Program-made: the position numbers and the translations under genes
Part shown: piece by piece, positions 8,633 through 49,841 of the stretch
Layout of the letters: every line of letters begins with the position of its first letter
How positions within the stretch are numbered: the first letter of the stretch is position 1
Assembly: GCA_964442905.1 (NCBI GenBank)
Contig: CAYUBD010000001.1
Coordinates: forward strand, 1 to 49,841
Direction of reading: 5' to 3'
Length of the DNA stretch: 49,841 nt
DNA from: an uncultured archaeon
Lineage (GTDB): Archaea; Aenigmatarchaeota; Aenigmatarchaeia; QMZP01; JAFGSV01
The notes under the pieces: model-generated
What the model was told of the DNA's origin: nothing
Database searches by the model: none
The model's input: only the letters and a program-made list of their open reading frames with translations

Positions 8633-8653
8633 TACCCATGAACAATAGTTCAT

Positions 8654-21614: not shown

Positions 21615-21640
21615 AGTATCACGTATTAGTAGGTGTGTAT

Positions 21641-24270: not shown

Positions 24271-24278
24271 AATATCAC

Positions 24279-29520: not shown

Positions 29521-29564
29521 ACAGATTATTGTATCGCGGTTATTATATTTATTCGAGTTAGACG

Positions 29565-29828
29565 CTATTTCACAAAAAGGTTGCAATGGCAGTGACCCAT
29601 TTCATTTATCTCGTCCTTGTGGTAGATGCACGGGCAGATTATCTTTTTGTCCACTTCCTTGTTTCCTGTGACCATCCTGCACGGGCAGTATCTGGCTCCG
29701 TGCTTCTTCTCGTTCGCAAGAAGACCATTGCAGAGACCCTCGACTATTTTATCATTGGGATTAAGTTTGAATCCCTGGCTTTCAGCATATTTGGCATATG
29801 TCTTCTTCATCTGTTCTTTCTCATCCAT
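29565..29828 (-). CDS. Ferredoxin:thioredoxin reductase catalytic-subunit-like protein (FTRc/FDR family)
   Basis: Diagnostic CPC ... CPC ... CHC spacing ('YCPCRM', 'ICPCIYH', 'GHCHCNLF'). Confidence 0.8.
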   Translation of the reverse strand: MDEKEQMKKTYAKYAESQGFKLNPNDKIVEGLCNGLLANEKKHGARYCPCRMVTGNKEVDKKIICPCIYHKDEINEMGHCHCNLFVK

Positions 29829-32941: not shown

Positions 32942-32995
32942 TTTAATCTCCTGTTAAAAGAATTGATTATGAGAATAAAAGAATTTAAGAAAAGA

Positions 32996-33907: not shown

Positions 33908-33968
33908 TTATTATCCGGAATGGTAATTATTAAATGTTATTGATTGTTGTTATCAGTAAGGACAATCA

Positions 33969-34424
33969 TTAAACCCACCTTCTGACTTTCTTCCTGTAAT
34001 CCAGATATTTCTTCCCGAAGGCCTTCTCAAGGTTCTTATCCTCGTCACCTATAAATATGTATTTCATCATTGCCACGAAAGCAAAGGGGAAAATGAACGT
34101 GAGAAGTGATCCGAGAAGCACGGATTCCCCGAGCAGTATCATGAACATTCCCAGGTACATGGGATGCCTACTTATCCTGAATACGCCTGAGACAACGAGC
34201 TTTGAGGGCATTAGGTGGGGCTTCACGGTCGTGGAATTCTTCTTGAACGCCATGTCAGCCTGGATGTTGAGCATGATGCCTATAATTATCAGCAGCGTAC
34301 CGGCATAGGAAACGGGCGCTTCTATCACTGCAACTGAAGGCAAAAGTAAATGCACGACTGCTGACACCGCAAGAAGCATGAGGAAGTAGTTGGTCGGCAT
34401 TATTCTGTTCAGTTTCATACCCAT
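33969..34424 (-). CDS. ICMT/PEMT-family membrane methyltransferase-like protein
   Basis: 'GVFRISRHPMYLG' and the C-terminal 'E...L...FG..Y..Y...V' motif. Confidence 0.65.
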   Translation of the reverse strand: MGMKLNRIMPTNYFLMLLAVSAVVHLLLPSVAVIEAPVSYAGTLLIIIGIMLNIQADMAFKKNSTTVKPHLMPSKLVVSGVFRISRHPMYLGMFMILLGESVLLGSLLTFIFPFAFVAMMKYIFIGDEDKNLEKAFGKKYLDYRKKVRRWV

Positions 34425-36554: not shown

Positions 36555-36914
36555 TTATCCATCGGCCGCATTCTCCATAAGACTTTCAATTCTTTCTATA
36601 CTCTTTTCTGCAACTTTTATTTCTTTGTTGAAATGCCTTTTCATCCTTTCGAGAAAAGCTTTCTTTTCCTCTTTAGTATTAAAATTTTCCATAAGCTTCT
36701 TGGTTTTTTTCAGATTCTCTTCCACTTCTTGTGGAATCTTTTCACTATCATGCTCTACTGCTCCTTGAGGACATGCATCATGGCATTTTCCGCATCTAAT
36801 GCATTTTTCCATGTCTATTTCAGCCTTTCCTTCTTCCAGGCTGATAGCTCCTGATGGACACATTTTGACGCAAATTCCGCAACCAGTGCATCTCTCTTTA
36901 TCAATCCATGGCAT
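36555..36914 (-). CDS. 2x[4Fe-4S] ferredoxin with a charged helical C-terminal tail
   Basis: 'CTGCGICVKMCP' and 'CIRCGKCHDACP', then about 65 aa rich in K/E that are predicted to be helical. GAGGTG SD upstream. Confidence 0.8.
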   Translation of the reverse strand: MPWIDKERCTGCGICVKMCPSGAISLEEGKAEIDMEKCIRCGKCHDACPQGAVEHDSEKIPQEVEENLKKTKKLMENFNTKEEKKAFLERMKRHFNKEIKVAEKSIERIESLMENAADG

Positions 36915-36985
36915 TTCAACACCTCGATTTTTTAATTCCGTGTTAAATCATTTTATATAATTTCAATACTTAATAATTTTACCCA

Positions 36986-37372
36986 TTATCTCTTGCGCTT
37001 TGGTACAGGATCTCTTATCACGGTTTCCGGGTCAGTCGTGGAGAGGAAAACGTTCTTTGTCATTTTGAGAGCACCCGTAGGGCATATGTCCTGGCACAGG
37101 CCGCAGAAGCAGCATTTGCCAAGGTCAATCTTCGGGTAGGTTTTCTTGTATTTATCCTTATATTTTTTTGGCAATTCTACCATTTCTATGGCTTTATTCG
37201 GACATATCCTGGCGCAAAGCCCGCAGGACACGCACTTGTTTATGTCGTAGTCATGCTCTCCCCTGTATCCTTCGGCTATGTGTATAGATTCCGCGGGAAA
37301 CCTAACCGTAATCGGTCTTCTGAACATGTTCTTAATAACCTCTGATAACATTCCGAATTTCATTTTCTTCAC
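36986..37372 (-). CDS. NuoI/MbhN-like 2x[4Fe-4S] subunit
   Basis: 'CVSCGLCARICP' and 'CCFCGLCQDICP'. ATGA overlap with the upstream gene. Confidence 0.8.
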   Translation of the reverse strand: MKKMKFGMLSEVIKNMFRRPITVRFPAESIHIAEGYRGEHDYDINKCVSCGLCARICPNKAIEMVELPKKYKDKYKKTYPKIDLGKCCFCGLCQDICPTGALKMTKNVFLSTTDPETVIRDPVPKRKR

Positions 37373-38472
37373 CTATCCATATCTGCCGGGCATGGATTCA
37401 AGCTCCAGTAAATAGCCGGCACGTCTGCAATCTGGCTGCCTACCAGCAGATGCTCGAGAACCGGTATCATATGCAAAAATGACGGTCCCCTTATCTTGCA
37501 TCTGTAGGGACTCCCGGTTCCGTCTCCGACCATATACACGCCTGCCTCTCCTCTTGCAATCTCATTCCTTATGTATACTTCCCCCTTTGGAATCTTGGCA
37601 GCCAATTCGGGCTTCAGCGAAGGCTCTCTCACTTTCCCTCCGGGCAATTCATTCAGAGCCTGCCTTACGATTTTCATCGACTGCTCGATTTCCCTTATCC
37701 CGATAACATATCTGGAGTACGAGTCTCCTTCATTCATAATCGGGACATCAAAATCAAACTGGTCATATACTTCATACGGATCGTCGAGTCTCACATCGGT
37801 CTTCATACCGCTTGCCCTCAGGACAGGTCCGGTCGCGCCCAATCTCACAGCATCTTTCAGTTTTAGCACACCGATACCCTTCATTCTTGAGAGCAGAGCG
37901 GGGTTTTCGAGCTTTTCCAGCATCTTCATTCTGTCTACCTTATCCAGAACCTTTAGTATTCTTTCTCTGGCTCTGTCAGGCAAGTCCCTTCTTACCCCTC
38001 CCGGGCATATGTAGCCTGCGGGATAGACCCTTCCCCCGGTGACGGACTCGAAGATATCCAGTATGTAGTCCCTGTAGCCGAATGCCAGCTTGAACCCCGT
38101 ATCGAAGCCGGTGCCCATTGACATAGCGCCATACCAGATGATATGAGATTGTATCCTGGACAGCTCTGCCATTATGACCCTTATGTATTTCGCCCTTTCC
38201 GGAATCACTGTTCCAGTCAGCTCGTCCACAGCTTCTGCATGTGCCAGGTTCCATGCAAGCGGCTCCAGTACACAGATCCTCTCAGATAACACCCCATTCA
38301 GCATAGGTGTCCTGCTTTCCATTAATTTCACAAAACCCCTGTGCAGATATCCCGGATCTGACTTGGCACCTGTGACATTTTCCCCGTTCACCTTCAGTTT
38401 TACGGAGAAATTTCCGGAGCCTGGATGGGCCGGTCCAAATGGAAGGTCGTAATCTTTTGACACTTCAATCAT
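37369..38472 (-). CDS. NuoD/[NiFe]-large-subunit-like protein lacking two of the four Ni-Fe cysteines
   Basis: Collinear with MbhL, but the motifs read 'RICVLEPLAW' and 'NPCPADMDR' and the protein ends there (no cleavable tail). Confidence 0.85.
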   Translation of the reverse strand: MIEVSKDYDLPFGPAHPGSGNFSVKLKVNGENVTGAKSDPGYLHRGFVKLMESRTPMLNGVLSERICVLEPLAWNLAHAEAVDELTGTVIPERAKYIRVIMAELSRIQSHIIWYGAMSMGTGFDTGFKLAFGYRDYILDIFESVTGGRVYPAGYICPGGVRRDLPDRARERILKVLDKVDRMKMLEKLENPALLSRMKGIGVLKLKDAVRLGATGPVLRASGMKTDVRLDDPYEVYDQFDFDVPIMNEGDSYSRYVIGIREIEQSMKIVRQALNELPGGKVREPSLKPELAAKIPKGEVYIRNEIARGEAGVYMVGDGTGSPYRCKIRGPSFLHMIPVLEHLLVGSQIADVPAIYWSLNPCPADMDR

Positions 38473-38987
38473 GCTTCCTCCTCCCAGTAAACTTTTTCTC
38501 TTTCGTTTTCCTTGTCATAATGCTCCTTTCTTACGTATGCTTTCCAGTCAAAGTCACGCCTGAATGGTGGGGGCCCTTTCCAGTTCTCCAGGAAGAGTTC
38601 TGACAGGTCGGGATTTCCGGTGAATTTCACTCCGAAAAGCTCGTGTGACTCCCTTTCGTGTATCTGGGCGTTCTTCCCCCATATCGTGCCGACAGAATCG
38701 ATGACAGGGTCCTTCCTACTTATCTTTGTCTTTATGGTAAGCGCCATTTTATCATCGTATGACCATAGATGGTATGCGATTACGTATTTCCCCTCTTTAA
38801 GTATATCCGTGACGGAAATTGCAGATAGGTGGTCAAATCCGAGACCTTTCACATGCTTGCACAGGCTCGGCAGCTTTGCCTTCGTGGTTTCCACCCAAAT
38901 CCTGCGCTCTTTTTGGACCCTCACGTCGGCTGAGAATTTTCTCCTTATCTTACCAGCCATTTCCTTCCCACTTATATTAGTGCTCAT
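38469..38987 (-). CDS. NuoC/MbhK-like subunit
   Basis: NuoC-like 'LSAISVTD ... HLWS ... ERE.HELFG' features. The start at 38987 forms ATGA with the upstream stop. Confidence 0.8.
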   Translation of the reverse strand: MSTNISGKEMAGKIRRKFSADVRVQKERRIWVETTKAKLPSLCKHVKGLGFDHLSAISVTDILKEGKYVIAYHLWSYDDKMALTIKTKISRKDPVIDSVGTIWGKNAQIHERESHELFGVKFTGNPDLSELFLENWKGPPPFRRDFDWKAYVRKEHYDKENEREKVYWEEEA

Positions 38988-39424
38988 TTGCTCTCCTTCC
39001 CGTTCATCTTTTCCACGTGTTCGACAATCTGGTGGATGGCATGGAATACTGCCTCGGGCCTCGGCGGACACCCGGGTATGTACATGTCCACAGGTATATG
39101 GTCCCCCACCCTTTTAACGGTATTGTAAGAATCCCAGTACATCCCACCGCTCATGGTGCATGAACCCATGGCTATAACAACTCTCGGCTCAGGCATCTGC
39201 TCATATATCCTTTTGGCTCTTTCCATGGACTTGAAGGTCTGGTATCCCGCGATGATCAGGCAGTCAGCGTGCCTGGGTGACCCGACCGGTATTATGCCGA
39301 ACCTCTCCATGTCCCACCTAGAGCCGACAACTGGCAGCAGTTCCGTGAAACCGCAGGAATTGAACCAGTTAAAAATCCATATGGATTTTACGAGCCGTTT
39401 TAGTTTTTTTGATTCTTCAGACAT
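38984..39424 (-). CDS. NuoB/MbhJ-like subunit with only three cluster cysteines
   Basis: 'NSCGFTELL' (compared with MbhJ 'GSCNGCDIE'), 'GSCTMSGG' and 'GCPPRPE'. Confidence 0.85.
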   Translation of the reverse strand: MSEESKKLKRLVKSIWIFNWFNSCGFTELLPVVGSRWDMERFGIIPVGSPRHADCLIIAGYQTFKSMERAKRIYEQMPEPRVVIAMGSCTMSGGMYWDSYNTVKRVGDHIPVDMYIPGCPPRPEAVFHAIHQIVEHVEKMNGKESK

Positions 39425-39447: not shown

Positions 39448-39855
39448 TTATCCAAGATTCTTGTCCAGCCATTCCCGTACCAATGGCTCTCCCATGGCCC
39501 CAAGGAATTCATCGGCAACCTGACCGTTTTTGAACATCTTTACAGCCGGGATGCCTGTAATTCCATATTTTTGAGCAAGCTCCTGGTTTTCATTGACATC
39601 GACTTTTGCCAGAATGAATTTCCCTTTATAGTCATTGGCCAGCTTCTCCAGTATCGGGCCAAGTATAAGGCATGGAGAGCACCACACCGCCCAGAAATCA
39701 ACGACAACGGGAACCTTCTGCGACTGGTCTATAACCAGTTGCTGAAAGTTGTCAGCACCAACTTCGATTTTGGTTTCCATGTTCTTTTCCACTTTTGTTT
39801 TTTCAAGCATGTTCTCCATTTTCTCTTTTCTTATCCTGGCAAGCTCATCATCCAT
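39448..39855 (-). CDS. Thioredoxin paralogue (WCSPC) with an N-terminal helical extension
   Basis: 'VVVDFWAVWCSPCLIL ... GIPAVKMFKNG', roughly 60% identical by eye to the 30845-31186 thioredoxin. The start is set at the ATG at 39855. Confidence 0.85.
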   Translation of the reverse strand: MDDELARIRKEKMENMLEKTKVEKNMETKIEVGADNFQQLVIDQSQKVPVVVDFWAVWCSPCLILGPILEKLANDYKGKFILAKVDVNENQELAQKYGITGIPAVKMFKNGQVADEFLGAMGEPLVREWLDKNLG

Positions 39856-39856
39856 T

Positions 39857-39870
39857 CTATCACGTGATAG
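39857..39870. promoter_or_regulatory. Perfect 14-bp palindrome CTATCACGTGATAG (candidate operator)
   Basis: Lies between the minus-strand TATA-like TTTTAATATAT (about 39886-39896) and the trx start codon (39855), over the predicted transcription start. Confidence 0.4.
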
Positions 39871-39996
39871 TGGATATTGTATTTGATATATTAAAATATT
39901 TTGTCCAGATTTGAAACCAGAGATTAACATAATCGGGAGGCCTTTTAGCATAGTATCTATAAGAACAGAAAACAATTTACAAGCAGGCGATGAAAA

Positions 39997-40725
39997 ATGA
40001 ATGACATTTTACTGATAGTATTTTTGATATTTGTCGGGCAAACCTTGGGCTCTCTGGTAGGACTGATAAAAAAACCGAAAAAGACTTTTTTATACGCTTC
40101 CCTGGCATTCGCTGCTTCCATGATGCTGGGCATATCCTTCTTCCAGCTGATACCCGAAAGCATGGAAATCGCGTCTCTCCATATAGTGGCAGCCTCCTTC
40201 TTTCTTGGAATAGCAATAATGTGGATTGTTGACAAGCTTTTACCCCATATAAATCCTGAGCTGCTCAAAAAAGAGAAGCCTTCTGTTAAAAGAAGCGTTA
40301 CCATGCTTGTTATTGGCATAGCCTTGCATAATTTCCCAGAAGGATTGGCAATTGGGGTCGGTTTTGCTTTGACACCTGCTTTGGGAATTATGATAGCATT
40401 AGGGATTGCGGCCCAGGATATTCCGGAGAATATCGCTACAATCGTCCCATTGTACGGCTTAACCAAAAAGAGAATGAAATCTTTTGTTATACTGACAGCA
40501 ACGATATTGTTTGAGGTTATTGGCTTTGTTTTCGGCTATTATCTTTTAAGAGGAATGTCACTAGGATTGTTAGGAGCATCTCTTGCAATTGCAGCAGGGT
40601 TTATGACTTATATCTCCATAGAAGAACTGATTCCGGCGGCACAAATAAAACAAAATCCTAAGATAGGTTTTACCGGTATTATTTTGGGATTAGTGTGTGT
40701 CTTGTTAATAAGCCTTTTGGGCTAA
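39997..40725 (+). CDS. zupT: ZIP-family zinc transporter
   Basis: Eight hydrophobic segments and the ZIP signature 'ALHNFPEGLAIG' / 'AAQDIPENIA'. Confidence 0.85.
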   Translation: MNDILLIVFLIFVGQTLGSLVGLIKKPKKTFLYASLAFAASMMLGISFFQLIPESMEIASLHIVAASFFLGIAIMWIVDKLLPHINPELLKKEKPSVKRSVTMLVIGIALHNFPEGLAIGVGFALTPALGIMIALGIAAQDIPENIATIVPLYGLTKKRMKSFVILTATILFEVIGFVFGYYLLRGMSLGLLGASLAIAAGFMTYISIEELIPAAQIKQNPKIGFTGIILGLVCVLLISLLG

Positions 40726-40754
40726 AGTGGTGAAAATTGTTAAAAACCACACTT

Positions 40755-42050
40755 TTACTTCACAGACTCGCAGGCCGAGACAATCGCATCGGCAAATGGC
40801 AGTGGTGTCAGTTCCGGATGCGCAGCATAATTCACTTTGAGCAGGTCGCTGATTGTTGATTTTTTCTGGATAGCGAGAGAAATTACGTTAATAATTCCCG
40901 GCACGATGTGGCCAGAGCCTATAACCTGCGCCCCTATCACCTTCTTATCATCATCGAAAACCAGTTTTGTCGTCAATGGCTTCGCGTCAGGCTGGGTATC
41001 GTATTTGTCCAGCGTTTCGCTCGTTCCTACTTTGTAATTTATTTCCTCGACCTTTGCCTGCTCTTCCGTCAGTCCCACTCTTCCCAGGGAATGTCCGGCT
41101 ATCTCCGTTACGGTTGGGTTAAGCACTCCCTCAAATGCAGACTTCCTGCCGCATATGCTCATCCCTGCGACCTTTGCCTGCAGGACCACTGTGATTACCA
41201 GTCCGCTTTGCAGGGGATTCTTTGTCAGCATGGAAAACGTCTCGGCACAGTCGCCCACGGCGTAAACATTCTTGATGTTAGTCCTCATCCTTCTGTCTGT
41301 TTTTATGCCGAACTTCCCCACCTTTATCCCGCTTCTTTCCGCCAGACCCGTTTCGGCCCTTACCCCGGCCGTCATCAGAACGACATCGGCCTTTATGTCC
41401 ATGCCTCCTGCGTGAACGGCTTTGACTTTGCTGTCACCTATCAGCTTTTCGACAGGCTTACCCAATAATACATTTACTCCGTTTTTCGACAGCGCGTCCT
41501 CAATCTTTCCGGAGAATTCACGGTCAAATGAAGGAAGCAGATATGGCAGCATTTCGACCAGAGAAACCTTGAACTTATCCGACAGCAGAGCGGCCGTCTC
41601 CACGCCTATCATGCCTCCGCCGATTATAGCGATGTCATGCGAGGCTTTCAGCGCCTTGGATATCTTCATGGTGTCATCAGCTGTTCTTATCGTAAAGACA
41701 TTCTCCAGGCCTATGCCATCTATCGGGAGGAGAAACGGCTCCGCGCCGGTTGCAAAAACCAGATGGTCGTATCTGAAGCTTTCCTTTTTTGTCCTGACCG
41801 TCCTGCTTTTGACATCAACTGATAGGGCTTCATCATGTATCAGCCTGGCGCCCGTTCCTGTTATCATGGATTCAGGCTTTTTGCATTTCCCGAGGCTGTC
41901 AATGCCCGCAAGCACGTAGGGTGACGAGCACCGGATGAAAATGCTTTTCTCTTTACCTATAACGGTTATGTCAGCGTCTGGTCTGATCTTCTTGATCACA
42001 TGGGACGTGACAATTCCCCCGGCACCAGCTCCTATAATGACGACTTTCAT
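40755..42050 (-). CDS. FAD-dependent pyridine nucleotide-disulfide oxidoreductase (CoA-disulfide reductase / NAD(P)H sulfur reductase / NADH oxidase class)
   Basis: 'VIIGAGAGG' FAD motif, single redox Cys context 'FIRCSSPYVL', second dinucleotide motif 'IIGGGMIGVE', and 'AVGDC'. Confidence 0.85.
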   Translation of the reverse strand: MKVVIIGAGAGGIVTSHVIKKIRPDADITVIGKEKSIFIRCSSPYVLAGIDSLGKCKKPESMITGTGARLIHDEALSVDVKSRTVRTKKESFRYDHLVFATGAEPFLLPIDGIGLENVFTIRTADDTMKISKALKASHDIAIIGGGMIGVETAALLSDKFKVSLVEMLPYLLPSFDREFSGKIEDALSKNGVNVLLGKPVEKLIGDSKVKAVHAGGMDIKADVVLMTAGVRAETGLAERSGIKVGKFGIKTDRRMRTNIKNVYAVGDCAETFSMLTKNPLQSGLVITVVLQAKVAGMSICGRKSAFEGVLNPTVTEIAGHSLGRVGLTEEQAKVEEINYKVGTSETLDKYDTQPDAKPLTTKLVFDDDKKVIGAQVIGSGHIVPGIINVISLAIQKKSTISDLLKVNYAAHPELTPLPFADAIVSACESVK

Positions 42051-42102
42051 ATTATCTCTATCTTATTTGTTTTATTTATTTTATGACCGCAGCTTTACAA
42101 GT

Positions 42103-43005
42103 CTATTTAATGCTACCAGCTTCCTCAGTGACGTTCTTGAGTATATCCATGAAAATAGATTCGAATTTCTTTTCATAAACCACCACAGGCTTCCCGTTGA
42201 CAAGGGCATCCACGAATCTCCTGTCGTATGGTATTTTACCCAGAAGCTTGATACCCATGCTCTCCGCAAAGCGCTCTATCTTCCTGCTGAACTCCGGATT
42301 GAGGTCGAACTTGTTTATAACCAGTCCGCTCTTTATTCCGAAATGGCTCACTATCTTGAGCGCCCTCTTTACATCACTTAGGGCAGACGGCGTGGGCTCA
42401 GTGACGGCTATCACGTAATCAGATCCCATGACCGACGCTATCACCGGGCATCCTATACCAGCAGCCGCGTCTGTCAACATGATATCCGCCTTTTCGTCTG
42501 CCGCCAGGGATGAAGCCCTGTCCTTGACAATATATATGACCTTCCCTGAGCCCGACTCGCCCATCTTCAGCTGGCCGGTGACTAGAGGGAAGCCGTAAGG
42601 GCTCCTGCCGGTTCCTATCATGGCGTTCTTCACTTCCTCAAGCCTTATAGCTTTCTCCGGGCATATGAGCTCGCAGGCCCCGCATCCCTCGCAGAAAAGG
42701 CTCCTGAAGACCGGTATTTTCTTCTTCTCGTTCCAGCTTATGGCACCGAACGCGCATACATCCCTGCATTTCCCGCAACCTGTGCATCTCTTCTCGTCAA
42801 GCACTGCTTTCTTGTTCGTGGTTATATCTTCCCAGGAATCGTAGTCCTTTTCGTCCATACCCAGACTCAGTCCCAGATCCGGCGCATCGACGTCGCAGTC
42901 TGCCACGACTATCTTCTTCTCTTTTGCGAGAAGCACGGAAAGCGACGAGCTGAGCATGGACTTGCCGACCCCGCCCTTGCCTGAAACGACTGTTATCTTC
43001 TTCAT
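42103..43005 (-). CDS. MinD/ParA-superfamily P-loop ATPase with an inserted 2x[4Fe-4S] ferredoxin domain (COG1149 type)
   Basis: Deviant Walker A 'GKGGVGKS'. Insert with 'CTGCGKCRDVC' and 'CEGCGACELICP'. Confidence 0.85.
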   Translation of the reverse strand: MKKITVVSGKGGVGKSMLSSSLSVLLAKEKKIVVADCDVDAPDLGLSLGMDEKDYDSWEDITTNKKAVLDEKRCTGCGKCRDVCAFGAISWNEKKKIPVFRSLFCEGCGACELICPEKAIRLEEVKNAMIGTGRSPYGFPLVTGQLKMGESGSGKVIYIVKDRASSLAADEKADIMLTDAAAGIGCPVIASVMGSDYVIAVTEPTPSALSDVKRALKIVSHFGIKSGLVINKFDLNPEFSRKIERFAESMGIKLLGKIPYDRRFVDALVNGKPVVVYEKKFESIFMDILKNVTEEAGSIK

Positions 43006-43784
43006 AAGACAGGCCTCCTCATTTTGGTCTCAGTCATATCTATGGGCTTTGCGTCCGGTTTTTCAAGGTCATAGATGGATATCGCATTGAGCCCCTTTTT
43101 GATGAATATATCCGTTATCCCCCCAAGCTCACTTCCGGAGAGAGGCTTTGACGTGCTCGGCCTTAAGGGTGTGTCTATCTGCACCTCGTCAGGCTTTATG
43201 GACGCAGCGAGATCAGCCAGCTCATCCGCGAGCCCCCGGTTCTCCTCAATCAACATAATCTGCAGTGACAACTTCCCCTCGTATTCGCTCCTGAAAAGCC
43301 TGAGTGAGTTTATTATCTCGCCAAGCCTCAGGCCTTCAGCGGGCCTGTTTACCTTCATGAACGTCTCGTAATCCGGAGCGTCGAGTTTCGCGACCACGTG
43401 GCCTATCTTCTTCAGGTCTTTCCGGACATCGGGACGGGGCATCAGGGACGAGTTCGTCAGTATTGCAGTCGGGAGTCCGCTCATCTTCTTTGCGGTTTCC
43501 GCCAGCTCTCCCAGATTGGAAGCAAGCGTGGGCTCTGAATTGCCGGAGAATGTTATTATCTGCGGGTCAGTCTTCTTGAGCGCATCCTGCAGGTCCTTCT
43601 CGACAGCTTCCCTCTGCACGAAGACCTTCCTTTCGGTCATGTATGTGAGGGGGCCCAGAGACTGTAACTGGCAGTAGATGCAGTCGAAGCTGCAAATCCT
43701 GCTGCCGGGTGCGGAGCACACGGGGTCTATGCCTAGTGAAATCCCGAGCCTCCTTGAAGGCACGGGGCCGTAGACAGTCTTCAT
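43002..43784 (-). CDS. Small radical SAM enzyme
   Basis: 'YGPVPSRRLGISLGI' N-terminus and the 'CSFDCIYC' CxxxCxxC motif. ATGA overlaps on both sides. Confidence 0.85.
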   Translation of the reverse strand: MKTVYGPVPSRRLGISLGIDPVCSAPGSRICSFDCIYCQLQSLGPLTYMTERKVFVQREAVEKDLQDALKKTDPQIITFSGNSEPTLASNLGELAETAKKMSGLPTAILTNSSLMPRPDVRKDLKKIGHVVAKLDAPDYETFMKVNRPAEGLRLGEIINSLRLFRSEYEGKLSLQIMLIEENRGLADELADLAASIKPDEVQIDTPLRPSTSKPLSGSELGGITDIFIKKGLNAISIYDLEKPDAKPIDMTETKMRRPVL

Positions 43785-44443
43785 ATCTCAATCACGCTCC
43801 CGGCCTTTATCTCCCTGAAATTGTCCGGATACTTCTTTCGTATCTCGGCGGTATGCTGCGTGCAGTGACATGGTGAAAGCATCTCTATACCATCCAGCTT
43901 CCCGAAATCCGAGAAGCCGTGGAAGCCGCCCATTATCCAGTATATCTCTCCCATCTCACGCGCTTTCGTTATTATGTTTCCGACTCCGGGATGTGAGCAT
44001 CCCGCTATGACTATAAGGCCTTTCGGTGTCTTCAGCACGAGCGACTGCTCGTCGGGCAGGTCGCCGCCGCTTTCCAGCTCACCGGTCGTGTAGACGTTCT
44101 CCGTTATCCTTTCCTGCCCTCTTATCTCCTTTATCTTCGACCTTCCCCTGGCCGTGGCCTTCGTCTTCCCAGAGAAGGACGCAGGGATGAGCACCTCCGG
44201 GTTTTCCGTGTGCTTCAGCAGCTCATCCAGCCCGCCGGTGTGATCCCAGTGGTCGTGAGAAAGCACGATGATGTCTATGGATGCGGGGTCTATGCCCAGC
44301 TTCTCCATGTTCTCCATAAGGGGTTTTCCCTTATCACCGCAGTCGAAAAGTATCTTTTTGCCGTTCTCTATAAGGCATGAGAAACCCCATCCTGACCTGA
44401 GTCCCTCTTCAGCATTGTTGTCATACACAATTGTTATCTTCAT
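43781..44443 (-). CDS. Metallo-beta-lactamase-fold protein (COG1237 type)
   Basis: 'LSHDHWDH' metal motif and 'CSHPG'. The start at 44443 forms ATGA with the upstream stop. Confidence 0.8.
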   Translation of the reverse strand: MKITIVYDNNAEEGLRSGWGFSCLIENGKKILFDCGDKGKPLMENMEKLGIDPASIDIIVLSHDHWDHTGGLDELLKHTENPEVLIPASFSGKTKATARGRSKIKEIRGQERITENVYTTGELESGGDLPDEQSLVLKTPKGLIVIAGCSHPGVGNIITKAREMGEIYWIMGGFHGFSDFGKLDGIEMLSPCHCTQHTAEIRKKYPDNFREIKAGSVIEI

Positions 44444-45285
44444 TTCATCAGCCACCCCGCAAGCGCCTTTATGTTGGCATCCTTCACAGCTTCTCCTTTT
44501 GAATAGCTCTGCATGACGGATTTGCTGTATGGTATCCTTGCTATTATCTCGACGCCGTACTTTTTTGCAATCTTCTCTATGAGCTCAGGCTTTCCCACGT
44601 CCGACCTGTTGAGGATTATCTTGCCCGGAACGCCAAGCACCTTCATCAGCTTCAGTATCAGCTCAAGGTCGTGTGCTCCCAGCGGCGTGGGCTCTGTTAC
44701 AGCCAGCGCGATGTCGTTCTCCAGGAGCGCTGTTATCACGTCGCAGTGCGTGCCTGCGGCCGTGTCGGTTATGACGAAATCATAGTCGGGGCTTCTCGAT
44801 TTAACGATATCCTTGGCAGCTTCCACAACGAACTCCGAGACCGGCTCCCCGGGCTTCAGCTCCCCGCTTATCAGGTCAACACTGCCTTTACTTCCCTCAT
44901 AAACGGTGCCTATCTCCTTGTAGGTCTTTCCTATTGCGCCTGTCGGGCAGGCTATCATGCAGGCCCCGCAACCGCTGCACTGCTCGGGAACGAATATGGG
45001 ATATTTCCCTTTTATCTGAACGATGGAGTTCGTCGTGCATACTTCGGAACACCTTCCGCACTTCGTGCATTTGCTGAAATCCCACTTTGGTATGACCTGT
45101 TTCACAGTCTTTACCTTCCTTCTTCTTGTCGAAAGAATCAGATGGTCGTTCGGGCAGTCCACGTCAGCATCAAAAAGCAGCACCTTCCCGCGCTTTGAAA
45201 GCTCAGCTGCCAGTGCAGTGGCTACCGTTGACTTTCCGGTGCCTCCCTTCCCGCCGGTTACAGCTATCTTCAAAGTTATCACCAT
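44440..45285 (-). CDS. MinD/ParA-superfamily P-loop ATPase with an inserted ferredoxin domain (second copy)
   Basis: 'GGKGGTGKS'. Insert with 'CTKCGRCSEVC' and 'CSGCGACMIACP'. Confidence 0.85.
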   Translation of the reverse strand: MVITLKIAVTGGKGGTGKSTVATALAAELSKRGKVLLFDADVDCPNDHLILSTRRRKVKTVKQVIPKWDFSKCTKCGRCSEVCTTNSIVQIKGKYPIFVPEQCSGCGACMIACPTGAIGKTYKEIGTVYEGSKGSVDLISGELKPGEPVSEFVVEAAKDIVKSRSPDYDFVITDTAAGTHCDVITALLENDIALAVTEPTPLGAHDLELILKLMKVLGVPGKIILNRSDVGKPELIEKIAKKYGVEIIARIPYSKSVMQSYSKGEAVKDANIKALAGWLMK

Positions 45286-45343
45286 TCATGGACCCGACAC
45301 GTTCCGAAGAATAGAAAATCCCGGACAGCCGGCAGAAACTTCA

Positions 45344-45673
45344 TCAGCGCCCGCAGTTTCCCTCAAGGTCTTTAAGCCTGTCAAAATTACTGACAACTTC
45401 CCTAACGGTCCTGAACGTGCCTGTCTTCAGCTTTATTCCCATTTTGCCGCACAGCTCAATCGCCCTCATGCCCATTTCGAACGTGTATATGGCATCCACG
45501 TCGAGGCCTTCGAGAGCCACGACAGGCGAGCATCCCTGCGTGGGCTTGACTTCCACTACATCAAGCTTCTTCCGGGAAGAATCGTATACCGCCATGAGCT
45601 GCACGTGACCGAAATGGGGATGCACCTTGGAATCCATTCCCTTGTTCTCTATCAAAGCCATTGCTATTTTCAT
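45344..45673 (-). CDS. NifX/NifB-C-terminal-domain-like protein (COG1433 type)
   Basis: 'MKIAMAL ... HFGHVQLMAVYD ...' matches the dinitrogenase FeMo-cofactor-biosynthesis-domain pattern. Confidence 0.75.
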   Translation of the reverse strand: MKIAMALIENKGMDSKVHPHFGHVQLMAVYDSSRKKLDVVEVKPTQGCSPVVALEGLDVDAIYTFEMGMRAIELCGKMGIKLKTGTFRTVREVVSNFDRLKDLEGNCGR

Positions 45674-45698
45674 TCACAACACCTTTTTATCCTGAAAA

Positions 45699-46145
45699 TC
45701 ACTGCTGCCACCGTCTGCCTCTGCCGGCACCTGTTCCGCCGCCTCTTCCGCTTCCCATGCCGGATCCGAAACCTCCGGGCATGCCTATTCCCATCACGCC
45801 GGGAGCATTAACCTTTGTAAGCTTTCCCTGCATGAACTGCATGACGTTTTCCTCAACTGTTCCTGCGGTTCCGGCGTATGCTTCTATCCCGACCTGCTGG
45901 AAGACTCCGAATGCTCTGGGACCGACCGCGCCTGATATGACTGCCTTGACGCCCTCATTCCCGACCGTCTGGGCGGCCATTATGCCTGCGCCGCCGCCCT
46001 GCATTGCCGCGCCGTTCTGGACATCCTTGTGACCGGTTATCTTCTTGCCGTCTGTCTCTACTATGACAAACCATGGGCACCTTCCGAAAACCGGACTTGT
46101 CTGGCTTTTCAGTCCCTGCCCTGTCGAACTTACTGCTATCTTCAT
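45699..46145 (-). CDS. IssA-like protein: NifX/NifB-family domain with a Gly/Arg-rich C-terminal tail
   Basis: 'MKIAVSSTG ... VFGRCPWFVIVE ...' domain plus the tail 'GMPGGFGSGMGSGRGGGTGAGRGRRWQQ'. This is the same architecture as the P. furiosus thioferrate storage protein IssA. Confidence 0.75.
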   Translation of the reverse strand: MKIAVSSTGQGLKSQTSPVFGRCPWFVIVETDGKKITGHKDVQNGAAMQGGGAGIMAAQTVGNEGVKAVISGAVGPRAFGVFQQVGIEAYAGTAGTVEENVMQFMQGKLTKVNAPGVMGIGMPGGFGSGMGSGRGGGTGAGRGRRWQQ

Positions 46146-46195
46146 ATTATTACCTCCAAAATTTTCTGTTTGAATAGATTTCTTTTACTCCTTTA

Positions 46196-46519
46196 TTACC
46201 TTTTAGTGAATCTTCTTGCTGTCTCGGCTGCGTCAGTCTCCTCAGGTACCACATCATTTCTTTTCCAGGGATATGGGCCTTTTGCCTGGAGTGGCCTGAC
46301 CGTGACAAGTGTCCCCAGACCATCATCAAAATTTTCCTCTATGTACCTTTTTAGCTTAGGCCCTCTTTCTCCGGGCGGGGCATCTCTAATATATGATGGC
46401 AGTTCAAGGCTGTATATCATATCATCCGAAGAAACTACCAGCAGATATTCTGCTTTGCTGAGATGCGCTGCCCTGTAAAGTTCACCGTCTTTGTATGAAA
46501 CGATTGCTGCTTTTTTCAT
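46196..46519 (-). CDS. Hypothetical protein (107 aa) inside the cluster
   Basis: ORF. Its N-terminus 'MKKAAIVSYKDG...AAHLSKAEYLLVVSSDD' faintly resembles the first strands of the NifX-like fold. Confidence 0.5.
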   Translation of the reverse strand: MKKAAIVSYKDGELYRAAHLSKAEYLLVVSSDDMIYSLELPSYIRDAPPGERGPKLKRYIEENFDDGLGTLVTVRPLQAKGPYPWKRNDVVPEETDAAETARRFTKR

Positions 46520-46563
46520 TTTTCACCCTAGATATTTCACCGTTCAAATCCACTTCAATGCTA

Positions 46564-46974
46564 TTATTTCTCCTTTTTGATTTCAGCTATTCTCTTTTCT
46601 ATCGATTCCATCTCCTGCCTGATTGCTTCCAGTTCCTGTTTCAGCATATTTTTCTCCTGCTCCAGGGACTGGCTTTCCTGCTCCTTTGTCGGCTGTGCAA
46701 AAGGGTATGCTGGCTGCTGTACTGGCTGAACCGGCACGGTTTGTGTCTGTACCGGGTAACCTGCTCCGGCCCTGTACCATCCAGGCTGTCCAGTGGTCCT
46801 TGCCCAGAACCTGTTTCCCCTTCCTCGTCCGAATGCTGCCGCTCCTCTTCCGGCAAAACCACGTCCGAATCCGGCATTTGCGAATCCTGGAGCCTGGAAA
46901 CCGCTGCAGTAACCCATTCCTCTTCCTGTCATCGAACCCATTCCCATAGGTCCTGTTCCGTCTCCTGCTGGCAT
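46564..46974 (-). CDS. DUF5320-type protein (GRG-rich N-terminal half, C-terminal coiled coil)
   Basis: 'MPAGDGTGPMGMGSMTGRGMGYC ... FGRGFAGRG ... GRGRGNR', then 'LKQELEAIRQEMESIEKRIAEIKKEK'. Confidence 0.75.
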   Translation of the reverse strand: MPAGDGTGPMGMGSMTGRGMGYCSGFQAPGFANAGFGRGFAGRGAAAFGRGRGNRFWARTTGQPGWYRAGAGYPVQTQTVPVQPVQQPAYPFAQPTKEQESQSLEQEKNMLKQELEAIRQEMESIEKRIAEIKKEK

Positions 46975-47001
46975 ATCAACACCTCCTATTCAATTTTAAC
47001 A

Positions 47002-47436
47002 TCAAGCCCTTCCCATGGGCGTTCCGCACTTCGGGCATTTCTGCTGGAAGCATGGCATTCCTCTCTCGTGTGCTGCGATCTCCCCGCACTTCGGGCAGAC
47101 GCAATTACCACCGGGGCCGAGCCCCTGTCCTCCTTTGAGTCCTTTTCCCATCATGTAATCACCTCCTCCTATACGCAGGGCTTTCCCTTTTATCAGTGAT
47201 TCCGCTATCTTCTTCCTTGCGGAAGCGAGCACCCTGTGAAACGTTGGCCTTGAAACATGCATCTTCTTTGCGCATTCCTCCTGCTCGAGACCCTCATAAT
47301 CCTTGAGCCTTACAGCCTCTATTTCCTCCACGCTGAGAGCGTTCTCTTCAAGCTCCCTCATGGGTATGCCTGATGGCTTGAAGTATGTCACATCAGGTTC
47401 CCTCTGGACCATCCTGGTCTTTTTCGGCCTTACCAT
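47002..47436 (-). CDS. DUF134/UPF0251 predicted DNA-binding protein with a C-terminal zinc ribbon
   Basis: 'MVRPKKTRMV...P.VTYFKP.G ... LSVEEIEAVRLKDYEGLEQEECAKKMHVSRPTFHRVL' (sigma-70 region-4-like HTH) and the C-terminal 'CPKC ... CPKC'. The start is set at the ATG at 47436. Confidence 0.8.
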   Translation of the reverse strand: MVRPKKTRMVQREPDVTYFKPSGIPMRELEENALSVEEIEAVRLKDYEGLEQEECAKKMHVSRPTFHRVLASARKKIAESLIKGKALRIGGGDYMMGKGLKGGQGLGPGGNCVCPKCGEIAAHERGMPCFQQKCPKCGTPMGRA

Positions 47437-47506
47437 TATGAACATATGTCCATAATGATTTAAAAAGTTTACGGTGGATGGGCTTTGTTTAAGCATGCTT
47501 TCGCAG

Positions 47507-49841
47507 TCACTTTTTGAGAACAAGTTCCGCATAGAACGTATCGTCATCTGATTTCTCTATCCTGAAGCCACGCTTCCTGAGCATGTTCCTCATTATCACG
47601 TTGTCGCGCAGGAAGCTGGCATAAATCTTGCCTATCCCCCGCTTCTTCGCTATCTCAAGGACGTAATCAGCCATCCTGTTTCCAAGGTCCTTGTTCTGCC
47701 ACGGGTCCGCCACCACTATGGCGAATTCCGCGCTCTCATTATATGCATCGGCTATTATCCTCGCAACACCTATCATCTTCTTTTTCCCGCGCTCTTCTAT
47801 CTCGGCTATTATCGCTATCTCCCTGTCATAGTCGTTCTGCGTGTACCTTATGAGCATGTCGTGGGATATATCGCTTATCAGCTCGAAGAACCTGAATCGC
47901 TGTGTCTGCTCCGAGAACTTGGTGAACATCTCGCCTTCCATGTGCTCGTCCTCGGGCTTTATGGGCCTGAGCAGGACTTTTTTCCCGTCGTTCATGGTGA
48001 ATTCAGTGATGTACTCCTTCGGGTACGGCGATATCACGAGATGTGAGTATGGCTTGACCTTCTTCCCCCTGAGCGTTTCATCAAGAACCACCTTTGCATC
48101 CATGGCAACGCCGCCTTTCTCGTCTATGCCGAACGGGTTTATGTCAATCTCCTTTATCTGCGGGAAGTCCTGCAGAAGATAAGCGAACTTGTAGAGAAGG
48201 AATTCCAGCACCCTGATGTCCACACCTTTCATGCCTCTGTAGCCCTTGAGCAGCTTGTATATCTTCGTTTCCTCTATTATCCTCCTCGCAAGCACCATGT
48301 TAAGCGGTGGAAGGCCTACATTCGTGTCCTTGAAGACCTCGACGGCGACGCCTCCCATTCCGAATAGTATCACCGGGCCGAATATCGGGTCTTTCTTGCT
48401 TCCGAACAGCAGCTCGTACTTCTTGCTTACCATCTTCTCCATGAACACGCCTTCTATCTTTGCATTGGGTTCATGCTTTTTTGCGGACGTGATTATTTTT
48501 CCGAATGCCCTGGCTGCTTCATCCTTTGTCTTTATTCCCAGCATGACGCCTCCCACATCGGTCTTGTGCAGTATGTCAGGCGACATGATCTTCATCACGA
48601 CCGGGAAACCAATCTTCTGGGCGACTGATTCAGCCTCTTTCGCACTTTTGGCAACGCCACTCTTGGTGACGGGTATCCCATAGTTCGAGAGCATCTCCTT
48701 GGCTTCATTTTCCGTGAGCGCATTCCTTCCTTCGCTGAACGCCTTTTCCACGATCTTCCTGTTCTCTTCGGTCCTGGGAACTATCTCATGCGGTATGGTG
48801 GACGGTGTCTCGTAAAGAAGCTCTATGTTCCTCGCATACCTGTACATGTACATGAATGACTTTACGGCGTGCTCTGGAGTCTCGTAGACAGGCACGTTCG
48901 AATTCTTGAGTATTTCCTTGGCATCGATGACATCCCTTCCGCCAAGCCACGATGCAAGTACGATCTTCTTCATGGGCTTGTTGAGCTCGCCTATCTGCCT
49001 CGCTATGCCGCTCGCATCAGTCATTGCCTGCGGCGTGAGCATCACGAGTATACCGTCAACGTTCTCATCGTTCATGCAGGCATCTATCGCTATCTTGAAC
49101 CGGTCGGCTCCGGCATCACCAAGGACGTCTATGGGATTCGAGAGGTTGCATATCGGCGGCAGTGACTTTTTCAGCGTTTCAACAGTTTCCTTCCCGAGCA
49201 CTGCAAGCTCACCTCCCAGCGATGCCAGCGAATCCGTTGCTATCACGCCTGGACCGCCTGCGTTCGTTACTATCGCAAGCTTCTTACCTTTCGGCCTCCT
49301 CTGCATGGAAAGCGTCTGCGCGCAGTCGAACAGTTCTCCTATCTCGTTGACCCTCACGACTCCCGCCCGCTTGAATGCGGCGTCAAAAACGAGGTCATTG
49401 CCTGCCAGCGCTCCTGTATGGGATCTGGCAGCACGGGCGCCGGCCTCGCTCCTGCCTGCCTTGAGGACGACTATAGGTTTGGTCCTCGCGAACGACCTGG
49501 CCGCGCTGAGAAACTTCTTGGCATCTCTCAGGGATTCCATGTATATGACTATGCTGGACGTGTTGGCATCGCTTCCGAAATAATCTATGAGGTCATGGAA
49601 GCTTACGTCTATCATCGAGCCTATCGAGACGAAATAGCTGAATCCGACATTCTGGTTGATGGACCAGTCGAGCATGGCCGTTCCCAGCGCGCCGCTCTGC
49701 GAGATGAATGCTATCCTCCCCTTCTTGGGAACCCTGCTCCCGAACGTTGCGTTGAGGTTTATGTATGGGTTTATGAGTCCCAGGCAGTTCGGTCCTATTA
49801 TCCTCATGCCGTAACTTCGTGCTTTTACCAGTATCTCTTCC
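47507..49841 (-). CDS. ADP-forming acetyl-CoA synthetase-like protein fused to a C-terminal GNAT acetyltransferase (Pat-like architecture); 5' end lies outside the window
   Basis: Succinyl-CoA-synthetase-like region with phosphohistidine motif 'RSHTGALAG', an ATP-grasp region ('GFPVVMKIMSPDILHKTDVGGV'), and a C-terminal GNAT ('VADPWQNKDLGNRM'). The reading frame stays open to the window edge. Confidence 0.85.
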   Translation of the reverse strand, partial: EEILVKARSYGMRIIGPNCLGLINPYINLNATFGSRVPKKGRIAFISQSGALGTAMLDWSINQNVGFSYFVSIGSMIDVSFHDLIDYFGSDANTSSIVIYMESLRDAKKFLSAARSFARTKPIVVLKAGRSEAGARAARSHTGALAGNDLVFDAAFKRAGVVRVNEIGELFDCAQTLSMQRRPKGKKLAIVTNAGGPGVIATDSLASLGGELAVLGKETVETLKKSLPPICNLSNPIDVLGDAGADRFKIAIDACMNDENVDGILVMLTPQAMTDASGIARQIGELNKPMKKIVLASWLGGRDVIDAKEILKNSNVPVYETPEHAVKSFMYMYRYARNIELLYETPSTIPHEIVPRTEENRKIVEKAFSEGRNALTENEAKEMLSNYGIPVTKSGVAKSAKEAESVAQKIGFPVVMKIMSPDILHKTDVGGVMLGIKTKDEAARAFGKIITSAKKHEPNAKIEGVFMEKMVSKKYELLFGSKKDPIFGPVILFGMGGVAVEVFKDTNVGLPPLNMVLARRIIEETKIYKLLKGYRGMKGVDIRVLEFLLYKFAYLLQDFPQIKEIDINPFGIDEKGGVAMDAKVVLDETLRGKKVKPYSHLVISPYPKEYITEFTMNDGKKVLLRPIKPEDEHMEGEMFTKFSEQTQRFRFFELISDISHDMLIRYTQNDYDREIAIIAEIEERGKKKMIGVARIIADAYNESAEFAIVVADPWQNKDLGNRMADYVLEIAKKRGIGKIYASFLRDNVIMRNMLRKRGFRIEKSDDDTFYAELVLKK

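Follow-up and report, generated by a model that had tools for sequence, protein, structure and literature searches.

Results and Discussion

The 49,841-nt contig CAYUBD010000001.1 of an uncultured archaeon of the Aenigmatarchaeota (GenBank assembly GCA_964442905.1), the whole of which is referred to here as the window, carries a cluster of nine genes (positions 42103-47436, minus strand) whose core corresponds to the orange protein (ORP) complex of Desulfovibrio. This core consists of a pair of MinD-type ATPases with inserted ferredoxin domains (MinD-Fd) and NifX-like proteins, and to this extent the cluster is of a known and partly studied kind; its exact gene set is found in no characterized pathway. 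With moderate confidence, we read the cluster as an ORP-type, anaerobe-specific system that would hold and traffic inorganic Fe-S (metal-sulfide) species and be driven by ATP and redox. This reading is based on the protein families present, the conservation of their neighborhood in both archaea and bacteria, the shuffling of domains among the cluster proteins, and a palindromic promoter element shared by related clusters. An initial annotation of this DNA, made before any database search, had suggested a dedicated machine for a thioferrate-like species, which is plausible.

Organization of the gene cluster

The nine open reading frames, numbered here g9 to g1 from the upstream end, are all encoded on the minus strand and are separated by at most 58 nt, and 4-nt ATGA overlaps are present at three junctions (g4/g3, g3/g2 and g2/g1), as had been annotated initially. 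The other intergenic spacings are 27, 44, 50, 25 and 58 nt, and GGAGG-like Shine-Dalgarno motifs precede most of the genes at these non-overlapping junctions. The nine genes probably form one transcription unit, or ten genes if the adjacent CoADR-like gene described below is included. The family assignments proposed from the translations (DUF134, DUF5320, two Nitro_FeMo-Co, two CbiA/ParA with 2x[4Fe-4S], Lactamase_B and Radical_SAM) were all upheld by searches against Pfam and NCBIfam. The host is archaeal, as seen from an MCM helicase gene in the window and a TATA-type promoter, and the closest protein relatives come from metagenome-assembled genomes labelled Candidatus Aenigmarchaeota and from sediment metagenomes. 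No tRNA or Rfam elements were found in the window, and scans for sigma70 promoters and intrinsic terminators are uninformative for archaeal DNA.

Correspondence with the ORP complex

Genes g4 (44440-45285, 281 aa; CbiA, E = 1.7e-18) and g1 (42103-43005, 300 aa; CbiA, E = 7.8e-21) encode MinD/ParA-type P-loop ATPases in which a Fer4 dicluster (2x[4Fe-4S]) is inserted at approximately residues 67-122 of the CbiA/ParA domain. In an alignment of 70 sequences of this MinD-Fd family, conservation covers the deviant Walker A motif (GKGGxGK) and all eight cysteines of the ferredoxin domain. Two further conserved cysteines occur in each subunit (C44 and C181 in g4), one at C186 of g1 (99% of sequences) and the other at C37 (77%; another 17% have a Cys four residues away), and by analogy with NifH this pair might bind a metal or cluster between the subunits. 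Both proteins score far below the cut-off of the MinD models (63-77 bits against 202), and four of the cluster proteins (g1, g4, g5 and g6) match the MrpORP model NF041136 partially, with 23-70 bits against a cut-off of 450.

The ORP complex of D. vulgaris comprises Orp3 and Orp4, which are paralogous P-loop proteins with ferredoxin motifs, the NifX-like Orp8, Orp5, and the Mrp::NifX fusion Orp9/MrpORP (PMC6345978, PMC8359166); Orp3, Orp4 and Orp8 co-purify and take Fe-S clusters from MrpORP (PMC6345978). The g1/g4 pair shares with Orp3 and Orp4, at the level of architecture and against the published description (PMC6345978), two paralogous P-loop ATPases of approximately 30-31 kDa with two [4Fe-4S] motifs each. 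Both systems also contain a single-domain NifX-like protein, are anaerobe-specific and clustered, and have a dedicated regulator, and in many related loci the cluster is linked to Mrp/NBP35 Fe-S carriers. However, the operon in the window lacks the Mrp::NifX fusion, with no Mrp gene in 40755-47436, and contains in addition DUF5320, a NifX protein with an Arg/Gly tail, a probable third NifX-fold protein, one protein each of the radical SAM and metallo-beta-lactamase (MBL) families, and the CoADR-like gene. Regulation also differs: sigma54 and OrpR act in Desulfovibrio, whereas the window has a DUF134-Zn-ribbon protein and a candidate palindromic operator. Control by sigma54 and OrpR does not apply here because the host is archaeal and the regulator encoded by the cluster belongs to DUF134.

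The orp operons are redox-switched and expressed only at low redox potential, and an archaeal origin has been proposed for the ORP system (PMC8359166); in Archaeoglobus, ORP homologs show constitutive high expression (PMC3949148). The role of the ORP complex is unclear, with a link to cell division having been suggested (PMC6345978, PMC8359166). The initial statement that no function had been assigned to such an ensemble therefore holds for its role, but the core matches a complex that has been studied both biochemically and genetically (PMC6345978, PMC8359166). Like the Mrp/NBP35/ApbC carriers, which are their genomic partners in many related loci, g1 and g4 are SIMIBI P-loop ATPases with a deviant Walker A motif; unlike those carriers, they lack the CXXC bridging motif and FeS_assembly_P, and have instead the 2x[4Fe-4S] insert and two separate conserved cysteines.

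Conservation of the neighborhood

Homologs of the radical SAM protein g2 number in the thousands. A survey of 80 loci from species-representative genomes (denoted below by L numbers) was anchored on this gene through an alignment of 36 homologs and screened with the proteins of the window. The expectation that parts of the neighborhood recur in anaerobic archaea and bacteria was borne out, as 27 of the 80 loci contained at least one strong MinD-Fd match and one NifX-like match on the strand of the radical SAM gene. Nine of these loci were archaeal (Hadarchaeota, Micrarchaeota, Methanocellales, Halobacteriota and unclassified) and 18 were bacterial (Dehalococcoidia/Chloroflexota, Omnitrophota, Auribacterota, Armatimonadota, Saganbacteria, Ignavibacteria and Deltaproteobacteria). 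Where at least 7 kb of upstream sequence was available (44 loci), NifX-like genes were found in 26 loci, MinD-Fd genes in 25, DUF134 genes in 18, DUF5320 genes in 15 and MBL genes in 14; MBL genes were present in 23 of all 80 loci. Relative to the radical SAM gene, the numbers on the same and on the opposite strand were 61 and 2 for MinD-Fd, 49 and 1 for NifX, 18 and 1 for DUF134, and 22 and 0 for DUF5320. Since these partner families lie almost solely on the radical SAM strand, their association is more than chance juxtaposition. The translationally coupled MinD-MBL-radical SAM-MinD block is kept in the close relatives L086 and L088, whose radical SAM proteins are 67-71% identical to g2; in L089 the MBL gene has been lost and the two halves of the cluster are reordered.

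Pfam annotation of a further 150 open reading frames from 22 positive loci identified DUF5320 in 15, Nitro_FeMo-Co in 14, ParA/NUBPL (Mrp/NBP35-type) in 13, and NifU_N and FeS_assembly_P in five each. Two fully annotated loci add FeoB, ArsP_2, Zn ribbons, CoaE, DUF1847 and TrmO_N, and metal permeases are also among the neighbors in related loci. The Fe-S theme is reinforced by this company, in particular Mrp/NBP35, NifU_N, FeoB, a CDF::NifX fusion and the metal permeases. A small gene with the SAM-binding TrmO_N domain lies just downstream of the radical SAM/MinD-Fd genes in three loci (L066 11622-12056, L086 9698-10204 and L088 11218-11724) and is absent from the cluster in the window; in L066 the radical SAM gene is followed by DUF1847.

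NifX-fold proteins and DUF5320

Gene g6 (45699-46145, 148 aa) encodes an MTH1175/ORP-type NifX-like domain followed by a 38-aa Gly/Arg tail. The Nitro_FeMo-Co match (PF02579, E = 1.7e-21) spans residues 13-105, so that g6 has the N-terminal IPR003731 domain of IssA. Its nearest solved relative is MTH1175 (1EO1; E = 6.8e-27, 44% identity over 117 residues), which is counted as an IssA-type protein (PMC5524996), and residues 2-114 also match the single-domain ORP of D. gigas (PDB 2WFB, E = 1.2e-12), the counterpart of Orp8. Unlike g6, the MTH1175/TM1290/TM1816 family of structural-genomics targets has little or no tail.

The tail of g6 had been described initially as exactly that of Pyrococcus furiosus IssA (SipA, PF2025). 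The operational marks of an IssA protein are an isoelectric point (pI) of at least 9, fewer than five Cys, and at least 20% Gly in the last 40 residues (PMC5524996, Supplementary Fig. 7), and g6 has all of them, with a pI of 10.10, one Cys and 15 Gly in 40 residues (38%). As in IssA, a Nitro_FeMo-Co domain is followed by a cationic, Gly-rich and presumably disordered tail, and genes like those for NSR/CoADR and MBX, which are co-induced by S0 in Thermococcales (PMC6981617), lie nearby. The likeness is not exact, however. Within its 38 residues the tail of g6 has 15 Gly, 4 Arg, 2 Pro, 1 Phe, 1 Trp and no Cys (pI 12), and the sole Cys of the protein (C23) is in the globular domain. The IssA tail is longer (approximately 70 aa) and richer in aromatic residues, including Trp (14 of 70 residues are aromatic, compared to 2 of 38 in g6), and contains a Pro-rich segment and a single Cys that g6 lacks. 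IssA itself forms thioferrate nanoparticles and reconstitutes [4Fe-4S] ferredoxin, and g6 is a candidate for such behavior.

The missing aromatic/Arg/Gly character and the single Cys are found in the window on a separate protein, g8 (46564-46974, 136 aa; DUF5320, E = 6e-23, 82.3 bits against a gathering cut-off of 27). Of the first 75 residues of g8, 22 are Gly, 8 are Arg, 11 are aromatic and one is Cys (pI 11.6); this cationic half gives way to a Pro-rich linker and then to an acidic coiled coil. Several relatives of g6 (P0242-P0254, L042 and L066) are fusions of 191-193 aa, with (GMGRG)n after the NifX domain, then a Pro-rich linker, and finally a coiled coil assigned to DUF5320 by Pfam. These fusions suggest that DUF5320 is a detached IssA-type tail with an oligomerization helix, that is, judging from sequence comparison, the free-standing form of the Arg/Gly tail and coiled coil that are fused to NifX elsewhere. 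The link is drawn from the longer tails of the relatives and not from the tail of g6 itself, as a search with the g6 tail (44 aa) gave no match to Pfam DUF5320.

The other two proteins of this group are shorter. The NifX-like product of g5 (45344-45673, 109 aa; Nitro_FeMo-Co, E = 4.9e-11) has three Cys and a His-rich motif, HPHFGH. Gene g7 (46196-46519, 107 aa) had been called an orphan, and its product indeed has no Pfam or NCBIfam match, but it belongs to a small, lineage-restricted family. Only five relatives were found among 1.84 billion representative proteins, and an ortholog (183 bits) occupies the same position in L089/L090. An AlphaFold2 model built from the five-sequence alignment (predicted local distance difference test score (pLDDT) 91.5; predicted TM-score 0.83) superposes best on the NifX-like TM1290 (1RDU; Foldseek TM-score 0.63, E = 2.4e-3), followed by RNase H-like folds. 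From this model, g7 is probably a third, very divergent NifX-fold protein. A profile relation between g7 and NifX was rejected at the sequence level (hhalign probability 0.3 against the NifX alignment), and the relation comes from the structure model.

Fusions found in related loci include NifX::DUF5320, CDF::NifX, DUF134::Zn-ribbon and DUF5320N::Zn-ribbon. The shuffling of the same few modules among the cluster proteins is strong evidence that these proteins are functionally linked. In L006 (4822-6147) and L089 (11670-12920), the NifX fold is tied to metal export.

Induction patterns in other archaea concern several of the same families. In Palaeococcus, S0 induces IssA/SipA together with an adjacent second NifX protein, a pair annotated as 'CobQ with Fe-S domain', Nsr and MBX (PMC6981617), and in M. 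voltae two IssA homologs encoded four genes apart rise on pyrite (PMC8516115).

The DUF134 regulator and a shared palindrome

Gene g9 (47002-47436, 144 aa) encodes a DUF134/UPF0251 helix-turn-helix regulator (DUF134, E = 7e-28, 97.5 bits against a gathering cut-off of 27) with a Gly-rich linker and a six-Cys C-terminal ribbon (Cys at 112, 114, 117, 129, 134 and 137). The zinc ribbon noted initially was recovered as this C-terminus, although Zn_Ribbon_1 reached only E = 0.0059 with the whole protein and 3.9e-4 with the C-terminus alone. The same Gly-rich, double-CxxC arrangement matches small proteins of bacterial clusters that join the DUF5320 N-terminus to a double Zn ribbon. Such proteins of 74-91 aa, with the Gly-rich motif of the DUF5320 N-terminus and a double zinc ribbon, are encoded in L042 (4672-5151) and L014 (5254-5526); bacterial clusters also encode a separate Zn_ribbon_8 protein, and all of these genes lie just ahead of the first MinD-Fd gene. 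The ribbon module is free-standing in the bacterial clusters and fused to DUF134 in the window.

The start of g9 is ambiguous, as gene callers elsewhere chose 47445 or 47547. An archaeal TATA-like box, TTTTTAAA (47459-47466, minus strand), can be read approximately 26 nt upstream of the ATG at 47436, and this spacing favors the start at 47436 and implies a leaderless or near-leaderless mRNA. A 16-bp palindrome, ATGGACATATGTTCAT (47438-47453, minus strand), is located between this box and the start codon, so that the region 47437-47506, initially proposed as the promoter on which the DUF134 protein acts, does contain a conserved operator-like element. The TATA-palindrome-ATG order is kept before the DUF134 gene in the relatives L086, L088 and L089 despite diverged flanks, and palindromes of this type (ATGAACATATGTTCAT, also written as the search motif ATGRRCATATGYYCAT) lie upstream of DUF134 genes in archaeal and bacterial clusters alike. 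With up to two mismatches allowed, the palindrome occurred 19 times in 1.14 Mb of fetched loci compared to 0.55 occurrences expected, and 15 of the 19 sites were at most 150 nt upstream of a cluster gene. A CATATG-centered palindrome lay within 200 nt upstream of at least 14 of the 20 non-redundant DUF134 genes when two complementary definitions were applied, against a chance background of approximately 0.004-0.01 per upstream region. The carriers include Micrarchaeota, Methanocellales, Dehalococcoidia, Ignavibacteria and Acidobacteriota. This recurrence before DUF134 genes in both archaea and bacteria suggests that the palindrome at 47438-47453 is probably the operator bound by the DUF134 protein. 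No DUF134 binding site turned up in the literature searched, and searches for DUF134, UPF0251, COG1342, DUF5320, COG1149 and COG1433 turned up nothing relevant.

Where clusters are split or rearranged, the second unit has its own palindrome, with extra copies preceding DUF5320 (as in L086 and L088), NifX-like or MinD-Fd genes; in L089 a copy overlaps the start of the first MinD-Fd gene of a MinD-radical SAM-MinD unit. The single copy in the cluster of the window fits one transcription unit.

The half-site pattern has only two matches in the 49.8-kb window (0.15 expected). The second, ATGAACAATAGTTCAT (8638-8653, plus strand), has perfect half-sites (ATGAAC-N4-GTTCAT) and lies between a TATA-like CTTTAAATAA and the ATG of an ArsR-family gene. 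This 98-aa ArsR-family regulator (8654-8950, plus strand) begins directly after the palindrome, in the same layout as the DUF134 promoter, and precedes a class-V aminotransferase / cysteine desulfurase-like gene (8923-10095, plus strand; whole region 8624-10095). From this arrangement, the ArsR/cysteine desulfurase-like unit may belong to the palindrome regulon; alternatively, the ArsR protein may itself be the palindrome-binding factor.

The radical SAM and metallo-beta-lactamase proteins

Gene g2 (43002-43784, 260 aa; Radical_SAM, E = 3.9e-10) encodes a minimal radical SAM protein with a single cluster motif, CX3CX2C, at C31/C35/C38. These three are the only invariant residues among its four cysteines in 36 homologs, and there are no auxiliary cysteines. 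NCBIfam matches were all far below cut-off and gave no specific identity. An AlphaFold2 model (pLDDT 95) retrieved only generic radical SAM folds with Foldseek (TYW1, viperin, DesII, NifB and PFL-AE; TM-score 0.55-0.65). Two candidate identities were rejected: g2 lacks Cys/His ligands for the auxiliary K-clusters of a NifB-type protein, and as TYW1/Taw1 it reached 33.5 bits against the TIGR03972 cut-off of 317.95, with a PDB sequence match of only E = 0.0036.

Gene g3 (43781-44443, 220 aa; Lactamase_B, E = 1e-12; an alternative start is possible at GTG 44455) encodes a small MBL-fold protein with an HDHWDH motif. Its best matches in the PDB (7dck, E = 2e-35; TM1679, E = 3.1e-21; and 2p4z) are all uncharacterized structural-genomics MBL proteins, and literature searches for 7DCK, TM1679 and COG1237 gave nothing useful.

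The CoADR-like gene and other genes of the window

Directly downstream of g1 is a gene for a CoADR/NSR-like pyridine nucleotide-disulfide oxidoreductase (40755-42050, minus strand). Its score against TIGR03385 (251 bits, under the cut-off of 578.8) supports membership at the family level only, and Cys41 was found by inspection in an FIRCSSPY context. The gap of 52 nt between g1 and this gene contains no T-run or hairpin; a hairpin followed by T5 lies after the CoADR-like gene (40726-40754). The association noted initially recurs in other genomes, with CoADR-like genes inside or beside the cluster in 10 of the 80 loci and between both MinD-Fd genes in L026 and L032. Because the hairpin and T5 follow this gene rather than g1, and because of this recurrence, the CoADR-like gene is a probable tenth member of the unit.

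Further downstream are metal and thiol genes (31432-35830, minus strand, and 39448-40725) for a ZnuA/B/C-type ABC transporter, a thioredoxin, a ZIP protein and a 471-aa DsbD_2/SfLAP-like membrane protein; the SfLAP, Trx and Zip families also follow the cluster in L086 and L088. A hydrogenase-type module (36555-39424, minus strand) consists of NuoB-like and NuoC-like genes and two ferredoxins flanking a NuoD-like gene (37369-38472) in which both NiFe CxxC motifs are lost (RICVLE for the first and NPCPADMDR for the second). A second, Mbh-like module (22020-29586, minus strand) retains RICGIC and DPCMSC in its large subunit (23020-24270), also has NuoH-like and Mrp-antiporter-like subunits, and adjoins a larger radical SAM gene (20592-21827, minus strand; 411 aa). 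Upstream of the cluster, a gene for an ADP-forming acetyl-CoA synthetase-like protein with a C-terminal GNAT fusion (47507-49807, minus strand) ends 70 nt before g9; in L089 the same gene is near the cluster, with Rad50/Mre11 genes between.

Possible functions of the cluster

In the ORP-type system favored here, labile Fe-S species with incomplete Cys ligation would be carried or scaffolded by the NifX-fold proteins g6, g5 and probably g7. The positively charged Arg/Gly stretches in g6 and g8 would bind a polyanionic Fe-S phase electrostatically, and the coiled coil of g8 would multimerize the assembly, as has been proposed for the IssA tail. The g1 and g4 proteins would form a heterodimer like Orp3/Orp4. 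By means of ATP hydrolysis and its own [4Fe-4S] clusters, this heterodimer would load the bound clusters, reduce them or release them, and it might also deliver low-potential electrons to g2, whose gene is translationally coupled between those of the two ATPases. Sulfide or persulfide (sulfane sulfur) would be supplied or detoxified by the CoADR-like enzyme. The g9 protein would bind the palindrome overlapping the transcription start and autoregulate the unit, with its Cys-rich C-terminus possibly acting as a metal or Fe-S sensor.

Several observations weigh against this interpretation. The full archaeal gene set is known from genes alone, both here and in homologs, and the likeness of g1/g4 to Orp3/Orp4 (DVU2103/DVU2104) is one of architecture and size, by description. 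The tail of g6 is short, aromatic-poor and devoid of the Cys of the IssA tail. Purified Desulfovibrio ORP carries a Mo-Cu-S cluster (PMC6345978), and the phenotype of orp mutants has been read as a defect in cell division and not in Fe-S metabolism (PMC6345978, PMC8359166). Genes for Mrp/NBP35, IscU or Suf are absent from the operon in the window, and the ArsP, CDF and ZIP neighbors would be just as consistent with other metals. No substrate could be assigned to the radical SAM or the MBL protein, and each is missing from many related clusters and may be accessory. Finally, the DUF134 protein is only a candidate binder of the palindrome, as an ArsR-family regulator in the window also lies behind such a site.

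A more ambitious form of the proposal would be a third general Fe-S system of anaerobes in both domains, distinct from ISC and SUF. NifX-fold scaffolds and Arg/Gly coiled-coil modules of the DUF5320/IssA-tail type would nucleate a polymeric, thioferrate-like depot, which the MinD-Fd pair and a dedicated radical SAM protein would build or reductively mobilize, and a DUF134 repressor with a Cys-ribbon Fe-S/metal sensor would rule the regulon through a palindrome that moved with the cluster between archaea and bacteria. Taken as a whole, this is a tentative and rather unlikely extension.

There are several potential alternatives. The cluster could instead assemble a metal-sulfur cofactor, complex or heterometallic, in a manner resembling that of FeMo-co, with g2 acting like NifB, g5, g6 and g7 as carriers, and g1/g4 as NifH-like reductases or insertases delivering to a client enzyme. 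The same three superfamilies are brought together in nitrogenase cofactor assembly (NifB, NifX/NafY and NifH), where carriers also hold labile anionic Fe-S species as proposed here, and the parallel is strengthened by the NifB structures among the Foldseek matches of g2 (TM-score approximately 0.63), by the Mo-Cu-S cluster of Desulfovibrio ORP (PMC6345978), by the tight placement of the radical SAM gene between both ATPase genes in several archaeal loci, and by the two extra conserved cysteines of each MinD-Fd subunit, which could bridge a cluster as in NifH. However, beyond its CX3CX2C motif g2 has one non-conserved Cys and therefore no NifB-type auxiliary-cluster ligands, and its fold fits TYW1, viperin and PFL-AE equally well. 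The ferredoxin insertions of g1/g4 are absent from NifH, no NifEN/NifDK-like genes are present, and the conserved neighbors of the cluster include no obvious client, nitrogenase-like or otherwise. The radical SAM gene is also absent from many MinD-Fd/NifX clusters, such as the orp operons of Desulfovibrio (PMC8359166). We therefore regard a cofactor line as possible but unlikely.

It is less probable that the cluster serves to detoxify metal or sulfide under stress, with excess Fe, Zn or thiophilic metals sequestered as sulfides in concert with exporters. ArsP_1, ArsP_2, CDF::NifX, ZIP and ZnuABC genes do adjoin the cluster in the window and its relatives, and the first role suggested for SipA/IssA was the detoxification of iron sulfide inside the cell (cited in PMC6981617). 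The Mrp/NBP35, NifU_N and FeoB neighbors nevertheless indicate Fe-S supply rather than disposal, and IssA rebuilds ferredoxin clusters in vitro (PMC5524996). Detoxification and storage are, however, mutually compatible.

The genes may also not form a single ensemble, in which case an ORP-like module (g9-g4 and g1) would enclose an unrelated radical SAM/MBL pair acting, for example, on tRNA or a small-molecule substrate. In favor of such a division, the Joint Genome Institute labels this radical SAM family 'wyosine synthetase', TrmO_N genes follow the cluster in L066, L086 and L088, approximately 40% of the radical SAM loci with enough flanking sequence have no MinD-Fd/NifX genes, and the MBL gene is often absent. 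The poor score of g2 as TYW1 argues otherwise, as does the ATGA coupling of g4-g3-g2-g1, which is kept in relatives. Furthermore, MinD-radical SAM-MinD sandwiches occur in independent archaeal lineages (L013, L016 and L089), and the unit in L089 has its own palindrome copy. An enclosed passenger pair is improbable. A role in cell division or positioning, with MinD-like ATPases acting spatially, was proposed for Desulfovibrio ORP on the basis of the morphology and division phenotype of an orpR mutant and the location of MrpORP at the cell pole (PMC6345978, PMC8359166), but is very improbable here. Although g1 and g4 are members of the MinD/ParA family, they fall well short of the MinD cut-offs and contain ferredoxin insertions. 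Moreover, the conserved neighbors are Fe-S and metal genes rather than division genes, and the division phenotype may be an indirect outcome of an Fe-S defect.

Implications

The storage, buffering and delivery of iron and sulfide in strict anaerobes are poorly understood, and the roles of the ORP complex and of MTH1175/IssA-type NifX proteins are questions that have stood for more than a decade. In the locus described here and its relatives, ORP- and MTH1175/IssA-type proteins belong to one conserved set with a shared palindrome, alongside DUF134, DUF5320, a minimal radical SAM protein and, often, Mrp/NBP35. Such a system is widespread, yet would not be unexpected to specialists. This study adds a candidate operator for DUF134 proteins in both domains and a list of tractable organisms that harbor the set. 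It also predicts that DUF5320 serves as a module resembling the IssA tail and that the MinD-Fd ATPases are partners of the radical SAM protein, identifies g7 as probably the third protein with a NifX fold, and shows that the radical SAM, MBL and CoADR-like genes recur in such clusters.

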